A stretch of 20,000 nucleotides of DNA from an uncultured virus (IMG/VR IMGVR_UViG_3300027212_000008) (Duplodnaviria; Heunggongvirae; Uroviricota; Caudoviricetes; Crassvirales). Shown piece by piece: positions 2 through 9,547 of this stretch; positions within the stretch are counted from its first letter, which is position 1, and each line of letters begins with the position of its first letter. Position numbers and translations under genes: made by a program. The stretch lies in IMG/VR virus record IMGVR_UViG_3300027212_000008; one strand, 5' to 3'. Under the pieces are notes generated by a model. The model saw only the letters and a program-made list of their open reading frames with translations, was not told the DNA's origin and did no database searches.

Positions 2-2116
2 AGAAAGAAAGAATTTAAAGCTTATATCTCTGCTAACGATAAAGACGGTATCTCTAGAAAAGAAGAGCAATTGATGGAGCAGATTACTTCGGAATTAACT
101 TCTATGATCAAGAGCACTTCTATCACTGAAGAAGAAATTAAGAAGCGCCTAGAACAATTAAATAAATACCAAACTTACGATTTTCAAGATATAGCAGAAA
201 TCACTGCTAATAAAATACTTAAGAAAGAATACAAAGAAGGAGACTTTGATTTTACTTTCTTACGCACATTTGAAGACCTACTAGTTGGAGGTGAAGAAAT
301 AATGTATTGTGGAGTACTTGGAGGTAACCCAGTAATGCGAAGAGTAAATCCTATGAATGTCTATACAATGGGAGGTAACTCTATGTATATTGAAGATGCA
401 GATATTATTGTCGAATACGGATATAAATCTGTTGGACAAATAATTGATGATTATTGGGATGAAATTTCTGAGGACGATGTAGATTTCTTAGAAAGAGGAA
501 AAACTGATGCTTCTGCAGGAGGCGGAGGTATAGGACTTAATAGAGATATCTCTGTATATGATTATTACGGAGAACAAGGAGCACTAAGTATTTTCCATCC
601 TAATGAAATGGGAACTAGAACTTTCTCAGGAGCTTTTGACACATACGGAAATGTAAGAGTGTTAAAAGTATGTTGGAGATCGAGAAGAAAGATTGGAGAA
701 TTAACATTCTTTGATGATGATGGACAAGAACAAAAAGATTGGGTTCCTGAAGATTACAAGATTAATAAAGACTTAGGAGAAACGGTAAAGTGGATATGGG
801 TTAATGAATGGATGGAAGGTACTAAAATTGCTGACCATATTTATACAGTAATGCGCCCTGTACCTTATGCAAGTAAATCTATAGTTAATAAATCTAAAGG
901 AACCCCTCCGTATGTAGGATCTGTTAATTCTACTAACGACTATAAAGTCCAATCCTTGATGGACGTAATGAAGCCACTCACGTATTCTTACGACATCGCC
1001 TACTACAAAAGAGAATTAGCAATCGCTACATACAAGGGTTCTTTTACTGCTTTAAATTCTTCTCTTGTACCTTCAGGTTGGGACCCAAAAGAATGGATGC
1101 GATATGTTACTATAAACAAATTTGCTTGGTTAGACCCAACTAATGAAATCCTTAAAGGACCTTCTCAAGGTAAATCCGCGGGAGCTTTTAATACATTAAC
1201 AGCACAACAAATACAAGTAGGCGACCCTAATGAAATAGGCATGTACACTAATCTGATGTTGGACATAGAGAATACTCTAGGTAAAATTGCAGGTGTTACA
1301 GGCGCTAGAGAAGGCCAAATAGAAAACAGAGAAGCAGTAGGAAATGTAGAAAGAGAAGTTGCACAAACTAATCATATTACAGAAAAGTGGTTTGCAATAG
1401 ATGCTAACTTCCGTAAAAGAGTTCTTACTAAGTTCTTAGAATGTTGTAAATACTCTTATAAGAAAAATCCTAAGAAAGGGCAATTTTTACTTGACGATAT
1501 GGGGCAAGTGATGATAAACAATTTTGATGAATTTGTATCTACAGAATACGACTTACACGTATCTAATTCTACGGCAGATACGCAGTTGTATAATGACTTA
1601 AGAGCTTTAGCACAAGCAGCTATCCAAAATGGACAAGCTACTATTGCAGACTTAGCAGCTATATCGCAATCAGAATCTGTGCAAGAAGTTGCTAGAAGAC
1701 TTGATGATTCTGCTAGAAAAATCAAAGAGCAGAATGATGCAATGCAAGAAAAACAACTTGCTGCGCAACAGGAAAACGCTCAAATGCAACTGAAAGAAAA
1801 GCAAGATACTCGTGCTTTTGAAGCAGGTGAGGCAGAAAAAGATAGAGATCTTAAACGCGAAGAAATAGCTTCTAAAGAAAGAATGCATGAATTAGGCCAG
1901 TTATCTACTCACGTTAGAGAGATAGAAGGACGCGAAGACATGGACTCTGATAGCAATGGTGTAGCAGATTATTTAGATATCAAACGCACAGACGTTGATG
2001 AAGAATATAAACAAAATCAAATTAGAATAGCCGAAGCCAAACTAGCTGAACAGATAAGATCTAATACTGCTAAAGAAGAAATAGCAAGAGAAAAAGCAAC
2101 TAAACCAACTAAATAA
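2..2116 (+). CDS. Portal protein, crAss-like (5'-truncated)
   Basis: Frame is open from position 2 (RKKEFKAYISANDKDGISRKEEQLMEQ...), so the true start lies upstream of the window. Motifs VLKVCWRSRRKIG, WVNEWMEGTKI and GVTGAREGQI plus a coiled-coil C-terminus resemble crAss-like portals. Located upstream of scaffold and MCP. Confidence 0.9.
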   Translation, partial: RKKEFKAYISANDKDGISRKEEQLMEQITSELTSMIKSTSITEEEIKKRLEQLNKYQTYDFQDIAEITANKILKKEYKEGDFDFTFLRTFEDLLVGGEEIMYCGVLGGNPVMRRVNPMNVYTMGGNSMYIEDADIIVEYGYKSVGQIIDDYWDEISEDDVDFLERGKTDASAGGGGIGLNRDISVYDYYGEQGALSIFHPNEMGTRTFSGAFDTYGNVRVLKVCWRSRRKIGELTFFDDDGQEQKDWVPEDYKINKDLGETVKWIWVNEWMEGTKIADHIYTVMRPVPYASKSIVNKSKGTPPYVGSVNSTNDYKVQSLMDVMKPLTYSYDIAYYKRELAIATYKGSFTALNSSLVPSGWDPKEWMRYVTINKFAWLDPTNEILKGPSQGKSAGAFNTLTAQQIQVGDPNEIGMYTNLMLDIENTLGKIAGVTGAREGQIENREAVGNVEREVAQTNHITEKWFAIDANFRKRVLTKFLECCKYSYKKNPKKGQFLLDDMGQVMINNFDEFVSTEYDLHVSNSTADTQLYNDLRALAQAAIQNGQATIADLAAISQSESVQEVARRLDDSARKIKEQNDAMQEKQLAAQQENAQMQLKEKQDTRAFEAGEAEKDRDLKREEIASKERMHELGQLSTHVREIEGREDMDSDSNGVADYLDIKRTDVDEEYKQNQIRIAEAKLAEQIRSNTAKEEIAREKATKPTK

Positions 2117-2160: not shown

Positions 2161-2175
2161 TTATAAAAATTATTT

Positions 2176-2183
2176 TAATATTG
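2176..2183 (+). promoter_or_regulatory. Candidate Bacteroidota-type -7 promoter element (TAATATTG)
   Basis: One mismatch to TAnnTTTG, intergenic, 22 nt before the ATG at 2206. Confidence 0.4.
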
Positions 2184-2194
2184 TAACTAATTAA

Positions 2195-2205: not shown

Positions 2206-3375
2206 ATGAGTGAAGAGATTAACGACCTATTTGAAGGACTTCAAATAATGTCAGCAGCAGAATTAAATTCAGCCGTGGAATCTAAAAATGAAGACGGAGA
2301 ATCTTCAAAGGAAGATGGGGAAGAATTTACTTTAACTCCAGTAGTAGCAGAAAAAGGAGATGACGATACTACTAGAGAAAATAAAACAGTAACAGCGAGA
2401 GCTGAAACTAATTCTAATTCTAGCGAGAATAAGAATGAAGTAGTTTACAAAGCCTTGATGAAGGAGCTAGTTAACTCAGGAGTTTTAACCGTTGAAGAAA
2501 TGGAAAAACTAGATGAGATGCCAGGAACCTTTGATTCAATTAAAGAGTTGGTAAACAAAACAGTTGAAACAAATTTTAAAGCTAAAGAGAATAGCTGGAA
2601 AAGTAACATGTCTTCTGCAAAGAAAAGATTTTTAGAAATCGAAGATGCATTTGACGAGACTGACCAAGCAATCTTAATGGCACAGAGATTAGAGTTCTTT
2701 GATACAGTAAGTATAGACGCAGTTAAAGCTGACGTAGGTTTGCAAAAGCAAATTTACTACGAGCAGTTGAAAGCTAAGAATTTCTCAGATGCAGATGCAC
2801 TAGAAGCAATTGAAGATGCAGAGGCTATTAATAAATTAGAGGAAAAGTCTTTAAAGGCAATCCCTGAGTTAAAAGCAATGTCTCAACATGTAGTTAATCA
2901 GTCTAGAGATAACAAAGAGTTAAAAACTAAGGCAGAACAAAAAGCTCAGATGGATGCTTTTGAAAATCTACTAGGACATATAGATTCTAGAGAAGGTTTT
3001 ATAGATGGTTTAAATCTTAATAAAGTCTCTAAAGATAAGTTAAAAAGCAACATAGTAAACCCTGTTTACACGGACCCTAAATCAGGAAAAGAGTTTAACA
3101 GTTTAATGTATAAGCAACAAAGAAACCCAGTAGAGTTTGAAATGTTGATTAACTACTATGACACATTAGGCTTATTTAACCTAGACAAAGAAGGAAAGTT
3201 TAAACCTGATATTACTAAGTTAAAGAACGTAGCAAAAACAGCAGCTATCAATGAACTAGATAAAGTCATTGCAGCTGAAGAACAAAGAGGAGTAGGTCGT
3301 AACACATCTATGGAAACCTCACAAAAAACAGAAGGTATACTTAGTCTCCTCGAAAGAGCGACTGGTGGAAAATAA
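2206..3375 (+). CDS. Putative capsid scaffolding protein (crAss 'gene 77'-like)
   Basis: 389 aa with an acidic disordered N-terminus and helical/coiled-coil remainder. Immediately upstream of MCP, as in Crassvirales. Confidence 0.65.
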   Translation: MSEEINDLFEGLQIMSAAELNSAVESKNEDGESSKEDGEEFTLTPVVAEKGDDDTTRENKTVTARAETNSNSSENKNEVVYKALMKELVNSGVLTVEEMEKLDEMPGTFDSIKELVNKTVETNFKAKENSWKSNMSSAKKRFLEIEDAFDETDQAILMAQRLEFFDTVSIDAVKADVGLQKQIYYEQLKAKNFSDADALEAIEDAEAINKLEEKSLKAIPELKAMSQHVVNQSRDNKELKTKAEQKAQMDAFENLLGHIDSREGFIDGLNLNKVSKDKLKSNIVNPVYTDPKSGKEFNSLMYKQQRNPVEFEMLINYYDTLGLFNLDKEGKFKPDITKLKNVAKTAAINELDKVIAAEEQRGVGRNTSMETSQKTEGILSLLERATGGK

Positions 3376-3416: not shown

Positions 3417-4928
3417 ATGGCTCAATTACTCCCATTACAACGGTATGAAGCTAAAGATTACAATGGTTTGGTTACTGATAACCACTTCCATTCTTTGTAT
3501 CAACAAAAACCTCAGTTGATTAGTAATGTAATTAAACAAATTTACAAGACTAACCTACAAGGTAAATTACGTGAATTCGTAGATCGTTTCCCTGTAAAAG
3601 AAGTGGAACAAGAAAACGGATTTTATAACTGGATGTTGCAAGGTCAACACGATAAAAATCTTCCTCTAGTAGATGCTGAAACTATTGACGGACGTACTAT
3701 TTCTGCAGGGACTTTCCCAGCAAACATTGGTGCTAACGGAGAACGTTTCTACTTAATCTTTGACGAACCGTTGTTTGAAGAAACTAACGTACTTCGTGGA
3801 GAAGTTGATGATTATCACTTGTTGGTTAAGAAAGCGATGGACGCAGGTTCTCGTTACAAAGTTGAAGTTGAATTAGTAACTGATAACTCTACTAAGTCTG
3901 TTCCTTCTGAGGAATTGTCTATCGGAGGACGTTGGTCTAAATTCTATTCTCTTTCTCCTTCTACATTATCTTACCAAGGTGCTAAACCTTATTTCACTTC
4001 TCCTTGGAGAATGGAAAATCGTCCTTCTACATTACGTATGGAGTATGAGGTTGCAGGTAACACAATCAACAAAGGTAAAAACGAACCATTAGAGTTTGGA
4101 TTTAACTACAAAGGACAACAAGAATCAATTTGGATTAACTACCAAGATATGGTAGCTCATCACCAATGTGAAGAAATGTTTGCTCGTATGTTGATGTACG
4201 GTAAGAAAAACTGGACAGCTGACCACAAGTATTTGAACAAAGATGACAAGACTAAATATGCTATCGAATCAGGTGCAGGTTTCTTTGAGCAAATTGCTCC
4301 ATCTAACGTTCACTACTATAACTCTTATGACCTTGATTGGCATTTAGAATTATTGTTAGACATGGGTGTTGGTAAAATTGAAAGAGGTAAGCGTGTAATT
4401 CACTTGTTAACAGGAGAATTCGGTGCTATTGAAATCTCTAAGCAAATCCAAGCTAAATCAGGAACAGGTAAATTTACTGTAATCTCTGATAAGTTCTTAA
4501 TGAGTAACACAGACCCAGGAAACTTAGGTGGTAAAAACACTAAAGGTTTAATGGAGCCGCAGTGGAACGTGTACGAATGGTACAATGGAGTTGTTATTAT
4601 GGTTGAGATCGTTGATTTCTTCGATGATGATGTTTACTTCCCTCAACGTCACCCAGATGGAAAAGGTCTTGTAGAATCTCACAGAATCTTAGCTCTTGAT
4701 TATGGCGACAATGCAGGTATCTACCGTGTTAAGCCAAAAGGAGTTCCAGATTACAATTGGGCATATATCCCAGGTATGAGAGACCCGTTCTCTCCTGCAG
4801 GTAAAGGTTCACCTAAAATGGTAGCTTCTCCAGTAGACGGATACTCAGTACACTTCCAGAAGTGGGGTGGATTGATGATTGAAGATCCTACTAAAGTAGT
4901 AGATTTACGTCTTTCAGTAGAGAGATAA
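3417..4928 (+). CDS. Major capsid protein (crAss-like, HK97 fold)
   Basis: 503 aa; motifs GLVTDNH, ESGAGFFEQI, LLTGEFG, YIPGMRDPF and GLMIEDPT resemble crAss MCPs. Strong high-expression codon bias (CGT, TTC, AAC). Followed by a terminator. Confidence 0.9.
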   Translation: MAQLLPLQRYEAKDYNGLVTDNHFHSLYQQKPQLISNVIKQIYKTNLQGKLREFVDRFPVKEVEQENGFYNWMLQGQHDKNLPLVDAETIDGRTISAGTFPANIGANGERFYLIFDEPLFEETNVLRGEVDDYHLLVKKAMDAGSRYKVEVELVTDNSTKSVPSEELSIGGRWSKFYSLSPSTLSYQGAKPYFTSPWRMENRPSTLRMEYEVAGNTINKGKNEPLEFGFNYKGQQESIWINYQDMVAHHQCEEMFARMLMYGKKNWTADHKYLNKDDKTKYAIESGAGFFEQIAPSNVHYYNSYDLDWHLELLLDMGVGKIERGKRVIHLLTGEFGAIEISKQIQAKSGTGKFTVISDKFLMSNTDPGNLGGKNTKGLMEPQWNVYEWYNGVVIMVEIVDFFDDDVYFPQRHPDGKGLVESHRILALDYGDNAGIYRVKPKGVPDYNWAYIPGMRDPFSPAGKGSPKMVASPVDGYSVHFQKWGGLMIEDPTKVVDLRLSVER

Positions 4929-4935
4929 TAAATAT

Positions 4936-4981
4936 AAAAAATGTATCCCCTTGGAGCTAATCACTCCGAGGGGGCATTTTT
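4936..4981 (+). terminator. Rho-independent terminator after MCP
   Basis: Stem TCCCCTTGGAG (4946-4956) / CTCCGAGGGGG (4964-4974), 7-nt loop, followed by CATTTTT. Upstream A-run suggests it could be bidirectional. Confidence 0.8.
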
Positions 4982-5000
4982 AATAAGAGAATTAATAATT

Positions 5001-5011
5001 GACAGCAAAAT
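5001..5011 (+). promoter_or_regulatory. GACAGCAAAAT motif in translation-initiation region
   Basis: Ends 2 nt before the ATG at 5014. Exact reverse complement of 8110-8120. Confidence 0.55.
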
Positions 5012-5013
5012 AA

Positions 5014-5952
5014 ATGGAAACAACGACAGCAGAAAAAGTGGTTTACGGTACATTTCTACAAGATAGAATTGTTGCAGTAAAACCAGTAGAATCATCAGGG
5101 AAATGGAGTACCCTATTAGTATCTGGACAGGACAATAAAAAAGACCCGTTCATTTATAACAAAGCAAAACGAAGCTACCAATTGCCTCTTAACAATGCAA
5201 ACTTAGGTGGAGGAGTTAAAGTAATTTTAGACGATCAAAAGAGAGTTAAAATTCAAAAATACATGGAGTCTTTTCCTAACGGAATGACCCAAAAAGAGTT
5301 CTTTGAAAAAGAATTAGGAGTAAACTTAAACCCTACTCTTAAGGCTGAAGAAAACTTCTGGAGAACAGACAGAAGAGGTAGAGTAGTAATGACTAAAGAA
5401 GGTACTACACTAAATCTTAATCTTTCCCTAGACATGCTTAAGTATCTTATACTTATAGCTAATAAGTCACTAGTATCTCCTTCGTATGAAGATAGAACAT
5501 TGAAAGCGACTTATGAGTTTATGATTGTAGACGAAAGCAAAGTAACTACTAAGAAATTAGCAGAGGCAAGTGTTAAGGCAGATGCGTTTATTAAGTATGC
5601 AGAAATTACAAATAGTAAGAAAGCTACTATTGGATTTATTAAATCCCTAGGTAGAACTATTCCTGCGACCGCAAGTGAAGAGTGGATAAAAAATGAAGTC
5701 TTAAATATTGCAGATAGTAATCCTGCATATTTCTTAGAAATTGTTAATCATCCTCAATATAATGAGCGTATCTTTGTACAAGAAGCTGTAGAAGCTGGTG
5801 CAATTATCCGTAAAGGAGAGAAAAGATATACTTTAGATAACGGGTCTGAGTTAGGAGATATGACAGATGTTATTAACTACTTACTTAACCCTGATAATCA
5901 GGAAGTAAAACTTAGAATTAAAGCAAAAATTGATTTAGCAAAACGTAACTAA
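5014..5952 (+). CDS. Conserved crAss-like protein downstream of MCP ('gene 75'-like), function unknown
   Basis: 312 aa; position after MCP and motifs NFW, TLNLNLSLDMLKYLIL and YLLNPDNQEV fit this family. Confidence 0.7.
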   Translation: METTTAEKVVYGTFLQDRIVAVKPVESSGKWSTLLVSGQDNKKDPFIYNKAKRSYQLPLNNANLGGGVKVILDDQKRVKIQKYMESFPNGMTQKEFFEKELGVNLNPTLKAEENFWRTDRRGRVVMTKEGTTLNLNLSLDMLKYLILIANKSLVSPSYEDRTLKATYEFMIVDESKVTTKKLAEASVKADAFIKYAEITNSKKATIGFIKSLGRTIPATASEEWIKNEVLNIADSNPAYFLEIVNHPQYNERIFVQEAVEAGAIIRKGEKRYTLDNGSELGDMTDVINYLLNPDNQEVKLRIKAKIDLAKRN

Positions 5953-5954
5953 TT

Positions 5955-6722
5955 ATGACTGCAAACGAAATGGCTGATGCATTAGAATTAAAACTAGACA
6001 GAAGTGATAGTTTTGGTTCCCCTGGATATGAAGATTTTGAATTATCTTCTGTTCTAAGTGAAGCTAATAGTTTATATGTTAAGAAGTACTTTGATGAATT
6101 AAACAACAGAAAAGGTAAAGGCTTCCAAGAAACAGAAATTAGAGACCAAGGTTTGGGAGCGTTAATACTAGACGCTCCCTCCCTCGTTTCTTCAGCTTCA
6201 CAAGTTGGTGTAATAGTCAACCCTAATGTAGTTGGAAAGTTCTTTGACTTACCGTTGAACCATATGTATACTATCTATGAAGAATGTACAATAGATAAAA
6301 TAGAATGTGGAACAGCAGAAACTAGTATAGTTGCTTATGTAACTCCAATAGCTCATACAGAAATGCAGAGATTTAATTGGAGTAAGTATAAGAAACCTTT
6401 CTATAATATTTCAGGAGACTCAAGAGTTTGGAGATCTGAATTTTCTAGACAAGTAACTGGAATTAATCCCGCATCACCTGCAACTGCAAAGAGGCATGAG
6501 ATGTTTACAGACGGTACTTTTAACATTACAGCCTATCACATGCGCTATGTTAAAAACCCTGAGAATATAGTAGTAGATAGAAATACTCCTACTAACCAAC
6601 GTAACTGTGAACTAGATACTTCTACTCACATAGTTATAGTAGACATAGCAATGAGCTTAATGTCTGATAGAATAAGAGAACAAAGAGTACAAAATATTGA
6701 GCAATTTAAAGAGCTCGAATAA
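5955..6722 (+). CDS. Tail ring / head-tail adaptor protein ('gene 74'-like, R3-type)
   Basis: 255 aa; N-terminal MTANEM, PGYEDFELSSVL, KGFQETE, YHMRYVKNP and CELDTSTHIVIVDIA are typical of crAss ring proteins. Confidence 0.75.
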   Translation: MTANEMADALELKLDRSDSFGSPGYEDFELSSVLSEANSLYVKKYFDELNNRKGKGFQETEIRDQGLGALILDAPSLVSSASQVGVIVNPNVVGKFFDLPLNHMYTIYEECTIDKIECGTAETSIVAYVTPIAHTEMQRFNWSKYKKPFYNISGDSRVWRSEFSRQVTGINPASPATAKRHEMFTDGTFNITAYHMRYVKNPENIVVDRNTPTNQRNCELDTSTHIVIVDIAMSLMSDRIREQRVQNIEQFKELE

Positions 6723-6759
6723 ATAATAATATAACAATAACAATTTAAAATTAAAAAAA

Positions 6760-8073
6760 ATGTTAAGAAAAGCAAACAATGTATTTAGCGTATTGCTAAA
6801 TGACGCTTCTAAATTAACTTCAGCGTTACCAGCAACAACTGCAGGTGTAGTTGTAACTGATGCAAATCTTGAATCAGGAGCAATCGTTGTAACAGATTTA
6901 GGATTGCAGAGATTAAGTGCTGCTGAATACACAGCATTAGCTAACAGTGACCAATTTCTTGTAGTACAAGGAAAAGGTGTTGGAAAACCTCTTATGAAGT
7001 CTCCAGTTTTAACTAAAGGTAAGATTAAGTTAACTGCAGCTCGTTTTAAAGCAGCTGTTCAACAAGTAACTACAATTGGTTATAACGGAACTACAGGAGT
7101 ACTTCCTACAGCAAACAATACTTCTTATTTTATTAAAATTAGAAAAAGAGATAATGATGCTGCTAACCGTTCTCAACCAATGAGTTTATTTGCAGGTCCA
7201 GTTAAGACTGACGCTACAGGTACTCAAGAAGAATTGGCTTTCTTGTTGGCAGTTAATGGTTTAAAGAACTTTAAAGATGAGCCTGCAAATGGTTACTTGA
7301 AATTTGAAGTAATTTCTAACGGAACTCTTGCAGCTATTGGTGCAACTACTTTAGCAGCTACTGTAGGTTCTAGATTAGTAACTTATTCTGCAGCACACTC
7401 TTTAGTAGTAGGTGATTTAATATTTATTGCTGGAGCAACTTATAAAGTAGCAGTAGTTCCTTCTGCAACTACAATAACTTTAAACTTTGCATTCCAAGGT
7501 ACAACTGTAACAGCTTTAGCAACAGGTACTACTTACGCAACTACTCACGGTTTATTAACTGTGCCTACTGCTTTTGGTATCCGTCTTACAGGTAAACCAG
7601 CACCGTTTGATGTAAATCAATTCCGTGATTATTATGCTAATCGTTTTACTGCAACTTTCTCTGATAGTTCAACTTTGAATACAGCAACTACAGGAGCTCG
7701 TAACGGTAACGGTGTATGGCAACAAGTTGCTATGGATGAGTACATGAACTATGGTTTTGAAGGTCAAAACAATCAGTTAGCTACTCCTTCTGTTCCTCGT
7801 GACCAAGTAGTTAAAATCCCTGGTGTAGGAACTGCAACAGCTTTAACTTCTAAGTATTGCGCTTTAAACATTGCTTGGGAAGAGTCAATTGGTACTCTAG
7901 TAACTATGGCAGGTGGAAAAGGTAACGTAGTAGTTTATGTTAATCTTACAGATAGTGCAGGTTTAGGAAAAATTTCTACTCCAACAACTACTACAGGAAA
8001 TGAGTTTATCACAGTATTTGGAGGTCCTACTGCTTTTGGCGTAGCTGCACTTACAGACTTGGATGAGCAATAA
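6760..8073 (+). CDS. Auxiliary capsid protein ('gene 73'-like)
   Basis: 437 aa, Thr/Ala/Gly-rich, highly biased codons, GNGVWQQVAMDEY motif, syntenic position after the ring gene. Confidence 0.65.
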   Translation: MLRKANNVFSVLLNDASKLTSALPATTAGVVVTDANLESGAIVVTDLGLQRLSAAEYTALANSDQFLVVQGKGVGKPLMKSPVLTKGKIKLTAARFKAAVQQVTTIGYNGTTGVLPTANNTSYFIKIRKRDNDAANRSQPMSLFAGPVKTDATGTQEELAFLLAVNGLKNFKDEPANGYLKFEVISNGTLAAIGATTLAATVGSRLVTYSAAHSLVVGDLIFIAGATYKVAVVPSATTITLNFAFQGTTVTALATGTTYATTHGLLTVPTAFGIRLTGKPAPFDVNQFRDYYANRFTATFSDSSTLNTATTGARNGNGVWQQVAMDEYMNYGFEGQNNQLATPSVPRDQVVKIPGVGTATALTSKYCALNIAWEESIGTLVTMAGGKGNVVVYVNLTDSAGLGKISTPTTTTGNEFITVFGGPTAFGVAALTDLDEQ

Positions 8074-8093
8074 AATGTAATTCTCCAACCCTC

Positions 8094-8135
8094 AGTAGCC
8101 CGTCACGAAATTTTGCTGTCGAGTGATGGGCTACT
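8094..8135 (+). promoter_or_regulatory. 13-bp stem-loop (TAGCCC-N26-GGGCTA copy 2); terminator and/or regulatory RNA
   Basis: AGTAGCCCGTCAC (8094-8106) pairs with GTGATGGGCTACT (8123-8135) with one G-U. 16-nt loop GAAATTTTGCTGTCGA. T-rich tract follows. Confidence 0.75.
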
Positions 8136-8149
8136 ATATTTATTTTTAT

Positions 8150-8157
8150 TACCTTTA
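8150..8157 (+). promoter_or_regulatory. Candidate -7 promoter element (TACCTTTA)
   Basis: One mismatch to TAnnTTTG. Starts after a 16-nt spacer from GGGCTA, as at 2176. Confidence 0.4.
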
Positions 8158-8173
8158 CTAAAATTTCAATCCT

Positions 8174-9004
8174 ATGAGTTTACTTCCTCAAATATCTTTA
8201 TCATTAGGAAACAAATGTAACACTGTAACCATTGAAGAGTTAACAGGTTTATTTGTAACTGATACCAACATAGGAGGTTGGGGAGGCCCTAATATTGATA
8301 CTAGTGTTATAACTTATGCAGCAGTTAATGTATTTCCTTACACAGGAAGTGTTATTTCAGCATCGGGCACAGGAGAAATCACAGGAACTCTATTTACAGA
8401 CACTACTCATATTTCAGGATTATTTCAAATAGGACAACAACTTATTGGTACGGGAGTTCTACCTGGAACTACTATCATAGCAGTTATTACAGGCACAGGA
8501 AATAACAACGGAGGAACTTATATTGTAAACTACTCTCAAACAGTATTACCAACTACTATCGCAGGTATACCTGTATTAGCTTCTTATCCATTATTTGATG
8601 GTACAGTTGACGTATTCTCAGGATTACCTTCTGCACCAACTCCATCACCTTTTATAGCACTTCAAGACCAACCTTGGTCTAACGTTGACGGAATTTATGA
8701 AATTGTTTATACAGTCACAGACGGTGTAGATGTTTATACTAATGAAACTCAACATGAATTGTTCATTTGTAATTTATGTAATTGCAAAGATAGTTTAGTA
8801 ATTAAACTTATTGATGCTTGTTCTACTATCGCTGTTAAAGCTTTAAAAGAACAAGTTGATCAAATGGAAGTATTTATTTACGGAATCCAATCAGCATTCA
8901 GCTGTGGGGATTTTGATACTGCTGAGAATATTATCACAGCAGCAACTAATTATTGTACAACAATATCTAACTGCAGCGGTTGTGGCTGTGGAGGAAATTG
9001 CTAA
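8174..9004 (+). CDS. Putative tail hub / fibre-docking protein, Cys-rich C-terminus
   Basis: 276 aa; beta-rich N-terminal part (DGIYEIVYTV), helical C-terminal part with many Cys. Position matches crAss tail hub genes. Confidence 0.55.
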   Translation: MSLLPQISLSLGNKCNTVTIEELTGLFVTDTNIGGWGGPNIDTSVITYAAVNVFPYTGSVISASGTGEITGTLFTDTTHISGLFQIGQQLIGTGVLPGTTIIAVITGTGNNNGGTYIVNYSQTVLPTTIAGIPVLASYPLFDGTVDVFSGLPSAPTPSPFIALQDQPWSNVDGIYEIVYTVTDGVDVYTNETQHELFICNLCNCKDSLVIKLIDACSTIAVKALKEQVDQMEVFIYGIQSAFSCGDFDTAENIITAATNYCTTISNCSGCGCGGNC

Positions 9005-9016
9005 AAATTATAAATT

Positions 9017-9547
9017 ATGGGTGGATGTAAAGATTGTAAAGGTATAACACTTTTTAAAGGAGCTGACGGACGAGGTATTGTTTCTATTACAGATAATGGA
9101 GACGGTACTTTAACTGTGCTTTATACAGATGGGACTATTTATATTACTCCTGATTTTACAGGTCCACAAGGAATCCAAGGAATCCAAGGATTACCAGGAA
9201 CTAATGGTACTAATGGTACAAACGGAACCAATGGTACTAATGGGGTAGATGCTCCTGTTCAAGTTGTAGATATTGGTGTGTGGGATATGGATATTACAGA
9301 CTCTGTAACTGTTCCACATGGATTGACTCTTTTAAGTATTAGAGCTGTTGACGCATTAATTTATGATACTGATGGCAACTTTAAATATAGATTAGATTAT
9401 CTTGATGGTGCAAATGTACAAGCAGGATCGGTAGGCGCTATAAATAGTACTACGGTAGAATTACGCAGACTACGAGGAGGATTTTTTGATTCTATTAATT
9501 TTTCAGGAATAGGTAATAGAGGTTACCTAGTAATTAGATACGTATAA
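9017..9547 (+). CDS. Short collagen-like fibre protein
   Basis: N-terminal CxxC, GADGRGIVSITDNGDGTLTV linker motif, 10 Gly-X-Y triplets, beta-rich C-terminal tip. Confidence 0.75.
   Translation: MGGCKDCKGITLFKGADGRGIVSITDNGDGTLTVLYTDGTIYITPDFTGPQGIQGIQGLPGTNGTNGTNGTNGTNGVDAPVQVVDIGVWDMDITDSVTVPHGLTLLSIRAVDALIYDTDGNFKYRLDYLDGANVQAGSVGAINSTTVELRRLRGGFFDSINFSGIGNRGYLVIRYV
9161..9250 (+). repeat. Collagen Gly-X-Y repeat (GPQ GIQ GIQ GLP (GTN)x5 GVD)
   Basis: 9-nt tandem units caaggaatc and ggtactaat are visible in the DNA. Confidence 0.9.

Follow-up and report, generated by a model that had tools for sequence, protein, structure and literature searches.

A terminator hairpin in a late operon of crAss-like phages and its candidate RNA pairing with two upstream translation starts

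Pairing of the 3' untranslated region (UTR) of a message with translation start regions is a known type of regulation. In icaR, a motif rich in pyrimidines in the 3' UTR reportedly base-pairs with a purine-rich stretch of the same mRNA where the ribosome binds. Pairing of the 5' and 3' UTRs of the icaR mRNA of Staphylococcus aureus is described in PMC3868564. Here we consider a similar candidate interaction in a 20,000-nucleotide stretch of DNA (the window) from an uncultured virus of the Crassvirales (IMG/VR record IMGVR_UViG_3300027212_000008). Its central element is a hairpin at positions 8094-8135 of the plus strand, downstream of a homologue of the crAss gene 75. The loop of this hairpin and a pyrimidine box in front of it are complementary to the leader of gene 75, and the loop also to the leader of the gene between the portal and major capsid protein (MCP) genes, called below the scaffold-position gene. 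RNA-RNA pairing of the 3' UTR with these translation start regions is the best-supported reading of the locus, and on comparative sequence data we consider it fairly probable; the element is probably a built-in RNA control over the amounts of two proteins encoded by upstream head genes.

By analogy, the closest described systems in mechanism would be icaR, hbs, and those small RNAs (sRNAs) derived from 3' UTRs that share the terminator of the mRNA. The phage locus resembles icaR in that the pyrimidine box UAAUUCUCC would pair with the purine box GAGAAUUA, and the loop with the start-codon region. Unlike icaR, it is a late operon of a phage with a pair of separate seeds, of which one is in the terminator loop, and with a pair of target genes, one of which is as far as 5.9 kb upstream. 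The sRNAs of the CpxQ, SroC and DapZ type likewise have a conserved seed directly 5' of the terminator and targets in start regions, whereas the phage element has its second seed in the terminator loop and its targets within its own operon or module. To our knowledge, no Hfq-type chaperone has been described for the crAss-like phage setting. RNAIII of Staphylococcus and other kissing antisense RNAs also display a short GC-containing seed in an oversized loop against ribosome-binding regions. However, the phage target is a linear A-rich leader rather than a loop, and the seed is GCUGUC rather than a C-rich anti-Shine-Dalgarno sequence. In the sib retroregulation of phage lambda a 3' hairpin also controls an upstream gene, but sib is an RNase III site in a read-through RNA and involves no pairing with a start region. 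Finally, in hbs the ends of one bacterial-type mRNA pair as well, and this is reportedly linked to RNase action and stability (PMC5737220), whereas the phage pairing would cover start codons. In the open-access and bioRxiv literature we found neither such an element in crAss-like phages nor an interaction of this kind between a terminator hairpin and a translation-start UTR in bacteriophages.

The hairpin coordinates and the 13-bp stem with one G-U pair, given in the preliminary description of the window, all check. The predicted fold has an energy of -24.5 kcal/mol (z = -5.5; none of 200 shuffled sequences equals it), and the stem begins 21 nt past the stop codon at 8071-8073. Relatives were collected from IMG/VR with the MCP of the window, and the best 80 of 162 matching stretches, with 91-100% identity, were used; the hairpin alignment comprises 38 distinct copies. 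Stem positions are paired in 494 of 494 cells, with double changes at 6 of the 13 pairs, and none of the shuffles or slid registers approaches this. G-U pairs are common on the plus strand (GU 18 times at one stem pair, UG 13 and 7 times at two others). As they would become A-C mismatches on the opposite strand, the hairpin is a sense-strand RNA structure, which agrees with the earlier proposal of a plus-strand RNA. The covarying sense-strand stem and the conserved T tract point to an intrinsic terminator of the late message running through gene 75, the ring-protein gene and the open reading frame (ORF) 6760-8073. A simple terminator scan overlooked this hairpin, because the loop limit of the scan was 8 nt. 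The block from GTAATTCTCC to the T tract can be aligned where the flanking genes of the relatives differ or are non-homologous. Greater conservation of the seed and terminator than of the flanking genes is a property of 3'-UTR-derived sRNAs, and it is found here. Rfam covariance models gave no matches at E <= 1 in the whole window, and a whole-window search for tRNA and tmRNA genes found none.

The loop word 8110-8122 is indeed the reverse complement of GACAGCAAAAT (5001-5011) in the gene-75 leader and of CGACAGCAAA (2195-2204) in the scaffold-position leader; its pairing with 5024-5034 through one G-U is also confirmed. The exact 9-mer GACAGCAAA occurs three times on both strands of the window, against 0.18 expected, and none of 200 shuffles reaches three; two copies are in the leaders and one, inverted, is in the loop. 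Thus the motif count against a shuffled background suggested earlier holds for the exact word, but not for the word with one mismatch, which shows no enrichment in the window (8 occurrences against 5.3 expected; 37 of 200 shuffles reach 8). A perfect complement of the loop of at least 10 nt is present in 2 of 22 start regions, and the fraction of 20,000 shuffled loops that match this is 0.0002. The match is therefore not due to chance. Taken together, the complementarity of the 3' UTR to the gene-75 leader amounts to 11-13 bp by the loop plus 8 bp by the box, and that to the scaffold-position leader is 10 bp long. The predicted cost of opening the loop seed is 0.47 kcal/mol, and opening costs overall are 0.06-3.7 kcal/mol.

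All 38 distinct copies of the alignment have the word GCTGTC in their loop. The loop length varies from about 9 to 17 nt, with insertions and deletions on either side of GCTGTC, and the core is still invariant. When the element was sought by a pattern with an unrestricted loop, 119 stretches matched; among the 78 loci examined, 20 were true hairpins, all 20 with GCTGTC, and 58 were chance matches. Two loci fit the hairpin pattern without GCTGTC, and neither has an obvious hairpin. The complementary GACAGC is found at all 128 gene-75 loci (56 unique), between -45 and +24 relative to the ATG, and at all 103 loci of the scaffold-position gene (38 unique), at its ATG; most relatives have a second GACAGC shortly past the gene-75 ATG. 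Farther relatives were reached stepwise through intermediate capsid proteins (20 loci, MCP 65-87% identical to that of the window). Among them GCTGTC is found in the terminator loop at all 12 loci that reach the terminator, and GACAGC at 16 of 20 gene-75 starts and 15 of 17 scaffold-position starts. In L308 (MCP identity 65%) the stem is wholly different (GGGTGGGGTT...GATCCCATCC) and the loop is merely AGCUGUC; gene 75 there begins AUGACAGC.

The word at the gene-75 start is upstream and non-coding in the clade of the window, and is read as GAC AGC (Asp-Ser) or ACA GCA (Thr-Ala) in other lineages. Since it is non-coding or in differing frames, the constraint acts on nucleotides and not on the protein. 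Its orientation follows the context: GACAGC is in sense at the starts and antisense only in the RNA loop. In every genome the loop has a contiguous complement of 8-13 bp in the gene-75 leader and of 6-12 bp in the scaffold-position leader. When start regions were scored against the loop of the same genome, in four near-complete relatives of 87-92 kb and in the window, gene 75 had rank 1 among 79-98 start regions in the relatives and rank 1 of 21 in the window. The scaffold-position gene had rank 2 in four of the five genomes and rank 4 in G006. The overall frequency of GACAGC in the four relatives is no higher than their composition predicts, as estimated from counts, and GACAGCAA occurs 4-6 times per genome.

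Two candidate extensions of this set were rejected. An additional leader with GACAGCAAAAATG in G006 could have indicated a wider regulon, but the homologous leaders of G003-G005 do not have it. The small paralogous early-region genes with ATGACAGCA (G003 88756/86344, G004 32845/32232) are not members of the motif system either: their paralogues carry AACAGC, so that ATGACAGCA reflects the protein sequence (M-T-A). At G003 17817 and G006 74173 a T precedes GACAGC and creates an upstream in-frame ATG (ATGACAGCAAATATG), and the target word may thus lie either in the leader or in codons 1-3, depending on the start used. In L063 and L068 ACAAAT flanks the loop word on its 3' side and the gene-75 leader word on its 5' side; these flanks are identical rather than complementary.

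A second complementary pair, which is an addition to the preliminary description, lies beside the first one. The word AAUUCUCC (8079-8086), directly 5' of the hairpin, matches GAGAAUUA (4987-4994) in the gene-75 leader; the leader box (A) is located 6 nt upstream of GACAGC. Boxes A and A' change together across lineages, each 3' version matching the leader of its own gene 75. The box 5' of the hairpin and that in the leader are, respectively, AATTCTCC and GGAGAATT in the clade of the window, AAATTCTCC and GGAGAATTT in the L222 group with L251/L255, TTTTTCTCC and GGAGAAAAA in L310, TTTTTCTCTCG and CGAGAGAAAAA in L326, TTTTCTCTT and AAGAGAAAA in L318, TTCTCTCC and GGAGAGAA in L313, and TTTTTTTCTCCA and TGGAGAAAAA in L299. 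The box complement within the same genome is at least 8 nt long in 46 of 54 unique leader/flank pairs, a comparison in which the 5' flanks of L245 and L286 were mis-cut; read by eye, the box of L286 is TTGGGAGA, 8 nt. Among 29 representatives the mean complement is 8.1 nt with the own leader and 6.66 nt with the leaders of other genomes, and none of 5000 permutations, which ignore relatedness, reaches the former value. On the MCP tree the paired state of the boxes switches once from T-run/A-run to AATT/AATT, and at least twice between AATT/AATT and AAATT/AATTT, including the well-supported nested pair L251/L255; in all it changes at least three times. Neither box is present in L308. In the comparison of relatives proposed earlier, the hairpin and the loop and leader words are kept and the boxes co-change; the core is invariant in the lineage of the window.

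An invertible DNA segment bounded by inverted repeats was also considered and rejected: the order of the two boxes is not mirrored, and the segment is inverted in none of the loci.

More distant lineages have different words at the same places. The MCPs of L328 and L331 are 99% and 74% identical, respectively, to that of P0080, which is 56% identical to the MCP of the window. In both loci a loop of 31 nt containing GUCUGCC is found in the terminator behind the third gene past the capsid gene, and the complement of this word, (AU)GGCAGAC, lies on the start codons of the scaffold-position and gene-75-like genes, with one G-U in the gene-75-like match of L328. Both loci have these two starts within the top three of their predicted targets; the best-scoring target in L328 is a further gene (start 14930), with the same tag. 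The loci L344 and L350 were found by way of P0107, itself 49% identical to the window. Here the gene-75-like leader contains UAAACAAAAGA, which complements a single-stranded spacer of the 3' UTR (11 nt, rank 1 of 16); AAAAGAGCUA, at the scaffold-like start of L350, complements this spacer too (10 nt; rank 2 of 16). By this comparison, the predicted seed and target are replaced together in distant lineages, still aimed at the two genes in the same positions. One can tentatively suggest, although the odds are somewhat against it, that a branch of environmental crAss-like phages has a self-closing late message with two seeds that grip the starts of two head genes, seeds and targets being rewritten together.

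Several features of the window suggest which transcripts could contain these sites. The nearly unchanged sequence at 2173-2187 is probably a promoter element of the scaffold-position gene, which would set a short 5' UTR with the target in it. The terminator of the portal gene (ATAGCCC...GGGCTAT, approximately 2121-2160) is located just upstream of it. In phage phi14:2 and its relatives the middle and late genes are reportedly transcribed by the host RNA polymerase, and promoter motifs are reported upstream of the homologues of phi14:2 gp092 (bioRxiv 10.1101/2020.03.07.982082). The gene gp092 occupies the same position as the scaffold-position gene. The gene-75 leader begins directly behind the T tract of the terminator that follows the MCP gene. 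As this terminator is strong and no promoter is evident behind it, read-through is the probable route of gene-75 expression. Contigs from RNA libraries were compared for four of six matching runs, and the region 7910-8174 had no usable cover. The terminator at 4946-4974 is bridged by contigs from two runs, which is compatible with read-through, although contigs do not establish one continuous transcript and the libraries may contain DNA. The loop of the same terminator is GAAA- or GNRA-like (TTGAAAGC, GTGAAAGC) in most relatives and CTAATCA in the window. Given this layout, the hairpin at 8094 would end RNAs that contain the gene-75 leader and, by longer read-through, the scaffold-position leader.

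The proposed mechanism is as follows. The 3' UTR would offer two single-stranded seeds, the pyrimidine box and the 3' part of the oversized loop, UUUUGCUGUC. As RNA, they would pair with the purine box and GACAGC(A)n at the gene-75 start codon; a further partner of the loop would be GACAGCAAA at the start codon of the scaffold-position gene. The interaction could occur in cis, in a read-through mRNA holding both ends, or in trans, by a stable 3' fragment. The existence of three target sites per loop and of a terminator after the capsid gene argues for some action in trans. Both helices could form together only if the box helix lay alongside the stem, a side-by-side arrangement suggested by reasoning. 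The duplexes span about -27 to +21 around the gene-75 AUG, and in some lineages include part of the AUG itself. As the pairing covers the region that the ribosome must bind, translation of both proteins would most likely be lowered relative to the capsid protein; gene 75 and the scaffold-position gene are thus probably repressed at the level of translation. We infer from the sequences that the RNAs meet, in cis or in trans, and that the effect is negative.

A number of observations weigh against pairing. The loop of L326 retains GCUGUC, whereas GACAGC is at neither start. L286 has only AACAGCAA and TACAGCAA; L311 and L315 have GGCAGCAA, and gene 75 there begins AUGGCAGCAA. The 6-nt core never varies in the lineage of the window, and thus offers no covariation there. 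Next to the core, the mean 3' extension of complementarity is 1.54 with the own gene-75 leader and 1.08 with those of other genomes (permutation fraction 0.001 for the total extension, in a test that ignores relatedness), but for the scaffold-position leader the extension carries no covariation signal (permutation fraction 0.214). In the T-run/A-run class, boxes complement the leaders of other genomes over the same length as their own, since they are of low complexity. L252 and L265 keep box A' without box A in the leader, and L072 and L229 are discordant for the boxes. As A is 5' of B in the leader and A' is 5' of B' in the 3' UTR, one colinear duplex is impossible. Among the distant lineages, complements in L342 and L336 are just 6-9 nt long, and no analogous complementarity was found in the Cellulophaga phage phi14:2.

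Beside these cases, it may be observed that the scaffold-position leader of L326 has GAGAGAGAAA directly before the ATG, matching the pyrimidine box of its own 3' UTR. Possibly, this is a re-wiring from the loop seed to the box seed.

One alternative, mentioned already in the preliminary description, is that GACAGC is a double-stranded DNA site for a protein, an operator or roadblock working in either orientation and inverted within the terminator. A protein site would account for a core that is invariant rather than covarying within the lineage and for the retention of the loop word without leader words in L326, and autoregulation is conceivable as gene-75 homologues are annotated as dsDNA-binding in some crAss-like records. 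However, all leader copies are in sense and hug start codons, and the sole inverted copy stays in the single-stranded loop despite the indels around it. Moreover, an asymmetric site of 6 bp is short for recognition by a DNA-binding protein, and an operator leaves unexplained both the second complementary pair with its paired changes and the new mutually complementary words of distant lineages. We thus find a DNA operator quite unlikely. The comparative data favour pairing of the 3' hairpin with the leaders over it; the flanks of the loop core show no convincing covariation with the scaffold-position leader. It is very unlikely that the loop and tail are a host-type promoter of the downstream tail genes, placed inside the terminator, with an incidental match to the leaders. 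The window does have a promoter-like layout, TTTG (-33) at 8112-8115, a 19-nt spacer and a -7-like TATATTTA at 8135-8142, which is not kept in all relatives. Its spacing and boxes fit the -33/-7 consensus of Bacteroidota, and the element lies between genes that differ among relatives, as a portable regulatory cassette would. On the other hand, TTG before GCTGTC is absent in the L113/L119/L051 type and in L017, although GCTGTC is kept in all, and such a promoter leaves GACAGC at the two starts, the A/A' pair and the rewriting in distant lineages without explanation. In some members a promoter embedded in the terminator may exist. A candidate promoter on the minus strand was rejected on inspection, as the likeness of the reverse strand of the hairpin to the scaffold-position promoter region goes no further than the bases that the stem and T tract dictate, and it is missing from the gene-75 leader.

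The pairing may also be real but act in the opposite direction: closure of the ends would protect the message from RNases or return terminating ribosomes to the starts. All the complementarity applies here equally, and the stop codon of the last gene is at most 20 nt from box A', overlapping GTAATTCTCC in most relatives. The 5'/3'-UTR interaction of hbs in B. subtilis is reported to tie stability to translation (PMC5737220). However, in several lineages the duplex takes in part of the start codon (AUGACAGC in L308 and L268, AUGGCAGAC in L328 and L331) or codons 2-4, and thus should hinder binding of the 30S subunit. In addition, most scaffold-position messages probably stop at the terminator behind the capsid gene and would not have the 3' element in cis. 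A stabilizing or activating role seems unlikely, and repression by RNA-RNA pairing remains the preferred interpretation.

The crAss-like phages infect Bacteroidota, and Bacteroidota do not use Shine-Dalgarno sites. RNA-level control in crAss-like phages is almost unexplored. If the pairing exists, it would be a phage-encoded RNA device setting the ratios of structural proteins in hosts without Shine-Dalgarno control, and it may belong to a wider, undescribed class of anti-start-site regulators embedded in phage terminators. It would provide a concrete, mutable handle on head-protein balance in Bacteroidota-type hosts, as well as a natural case of communication between the 5' and 3' ends of a bacterial-type mRNA, for which a comparative set of more than 100 relatives is at hand.

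The features of the locus are collected in Table 1. Comparison of ORFs with PHROG and Pfam identifies the window as the head and tail module of a distant, uncultured member of the crAss-like phages. All genes are on the same strand, and the opposite strand has none. The MCP is only about 30% identical to those of the nearest named phages, and a search of the phage collection for records nearly identical to the window found none. Homologues of ORF 5014-5952 in crAss-like records, found by tblastn, are annotated as structural proteins or proteins with a dsDNA-binding domain, and its neighbour encodes a tail ring protein; the term 'assembly factors' is a guess. The presence of the tail ring 3/4 protein in the operon that ends at the hairpin means that head- and neck-associated genes are mixed there. 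Neither ORF 2206-3375 nor ORF 6760-8073 has any match in PHROG, Pfam or the phage collection, and the labels 'scaffold' and 'auxiliary capsid gene' given to them earlier are unconfirmed.

Table 1. Features of the window (predicted duplex energies disregard the strain of pairing within a loop)
Feature	Position	Strand	Remarks
Portal gene	2-2116	+	PHROG, E = 1.6e-91
Invariant sequence TTTTAATATTGTAAC	2173-2187	+	Nearly unchanged in 62 relatives; one copy per genome
Target B, CGACAGCAAA	2195-2204	+	1 nt before ATG 2206; duplex -15.8 kcal/mol
Gene between portal and capsid genes ('scaffold' position)	2206-3375	+	389 amino acids
MCP gene	3417-4928	+	PHROG, E = 6.8e-64
Candidate terminator after MCP gene	4946-4974	+	Terminator scan; compensatory stem changes visible in 79-row alignment
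Purine box A, GAGAAUUA	4987-4994	+	Gene-75 leader; exact complement of 8078-8085; duplex -8.3 kcal/mol
Target B1, GACAGCAAAAU	5001-5011	+	2 nt before gene-75 ATG 5014; duplex with loop -17.0 kcal/mol
Predicted three-gene message closed by the hairpin	5014-8073	+	Gene-75 homologue, ring protein gene, ORF 6760-8073
Homologue at the position of crAss gene 75	5014-5952	+	tblastn
Target B2, CGACAGCAGAA	5024-5034	+	Gene-75 codons 4-7; one G-U; duplex -16.8 kcal/mol
crAss tail ring 3/4 protein gene	5955-6722	+	Pfam PF25710, E = 1e-18
Gene of 437-amino-acid protein, last before the hairpin	6760-8073	+	ORF; followed by tail genes
Pyrimidine box A', UAAUUCUCC	8078-8086	+	Single-stranded, 7 nt 5' of hairpin; AATTCTCC invariant in alignment
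Candidate terminator hairpin	8094-8135	+	Stem 8094-8106/8123-8135, 13 bp, one G-U (G8102-T8127)
Hairpin loop, GAAATTTTGCTGTCGA	8107-8122	+	16 nt
Loop seed B', AUUUUGCUGUCGA	8110-8122	+	Invariant core GCUGUC = 8115-8120
T/U-rich tail, ATATTTATTTTTAT	8136-8149	+	CTACTAT(A/T)TTTT kept in alignment; tract in window broken by A

The terminator element (8040-8230) is flanked by variable modules, with at least two unrelated C-termini of upstream genes and at least three unrelated downstream genes in the relatives. In this respect it resembles a portable regulatory cassette at a recombination boundary, as far as can be judged from the alignments. Farther downstream, within the gene at 9017-9547, contigs of several runs go back by 39-49 bases at 9195-9243, and the number of GGAAC/AATGGAAC-type repeats differs. 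The product of this gene has tail-fibre PHROG matches and contains a collagen-like repeat of variable length.

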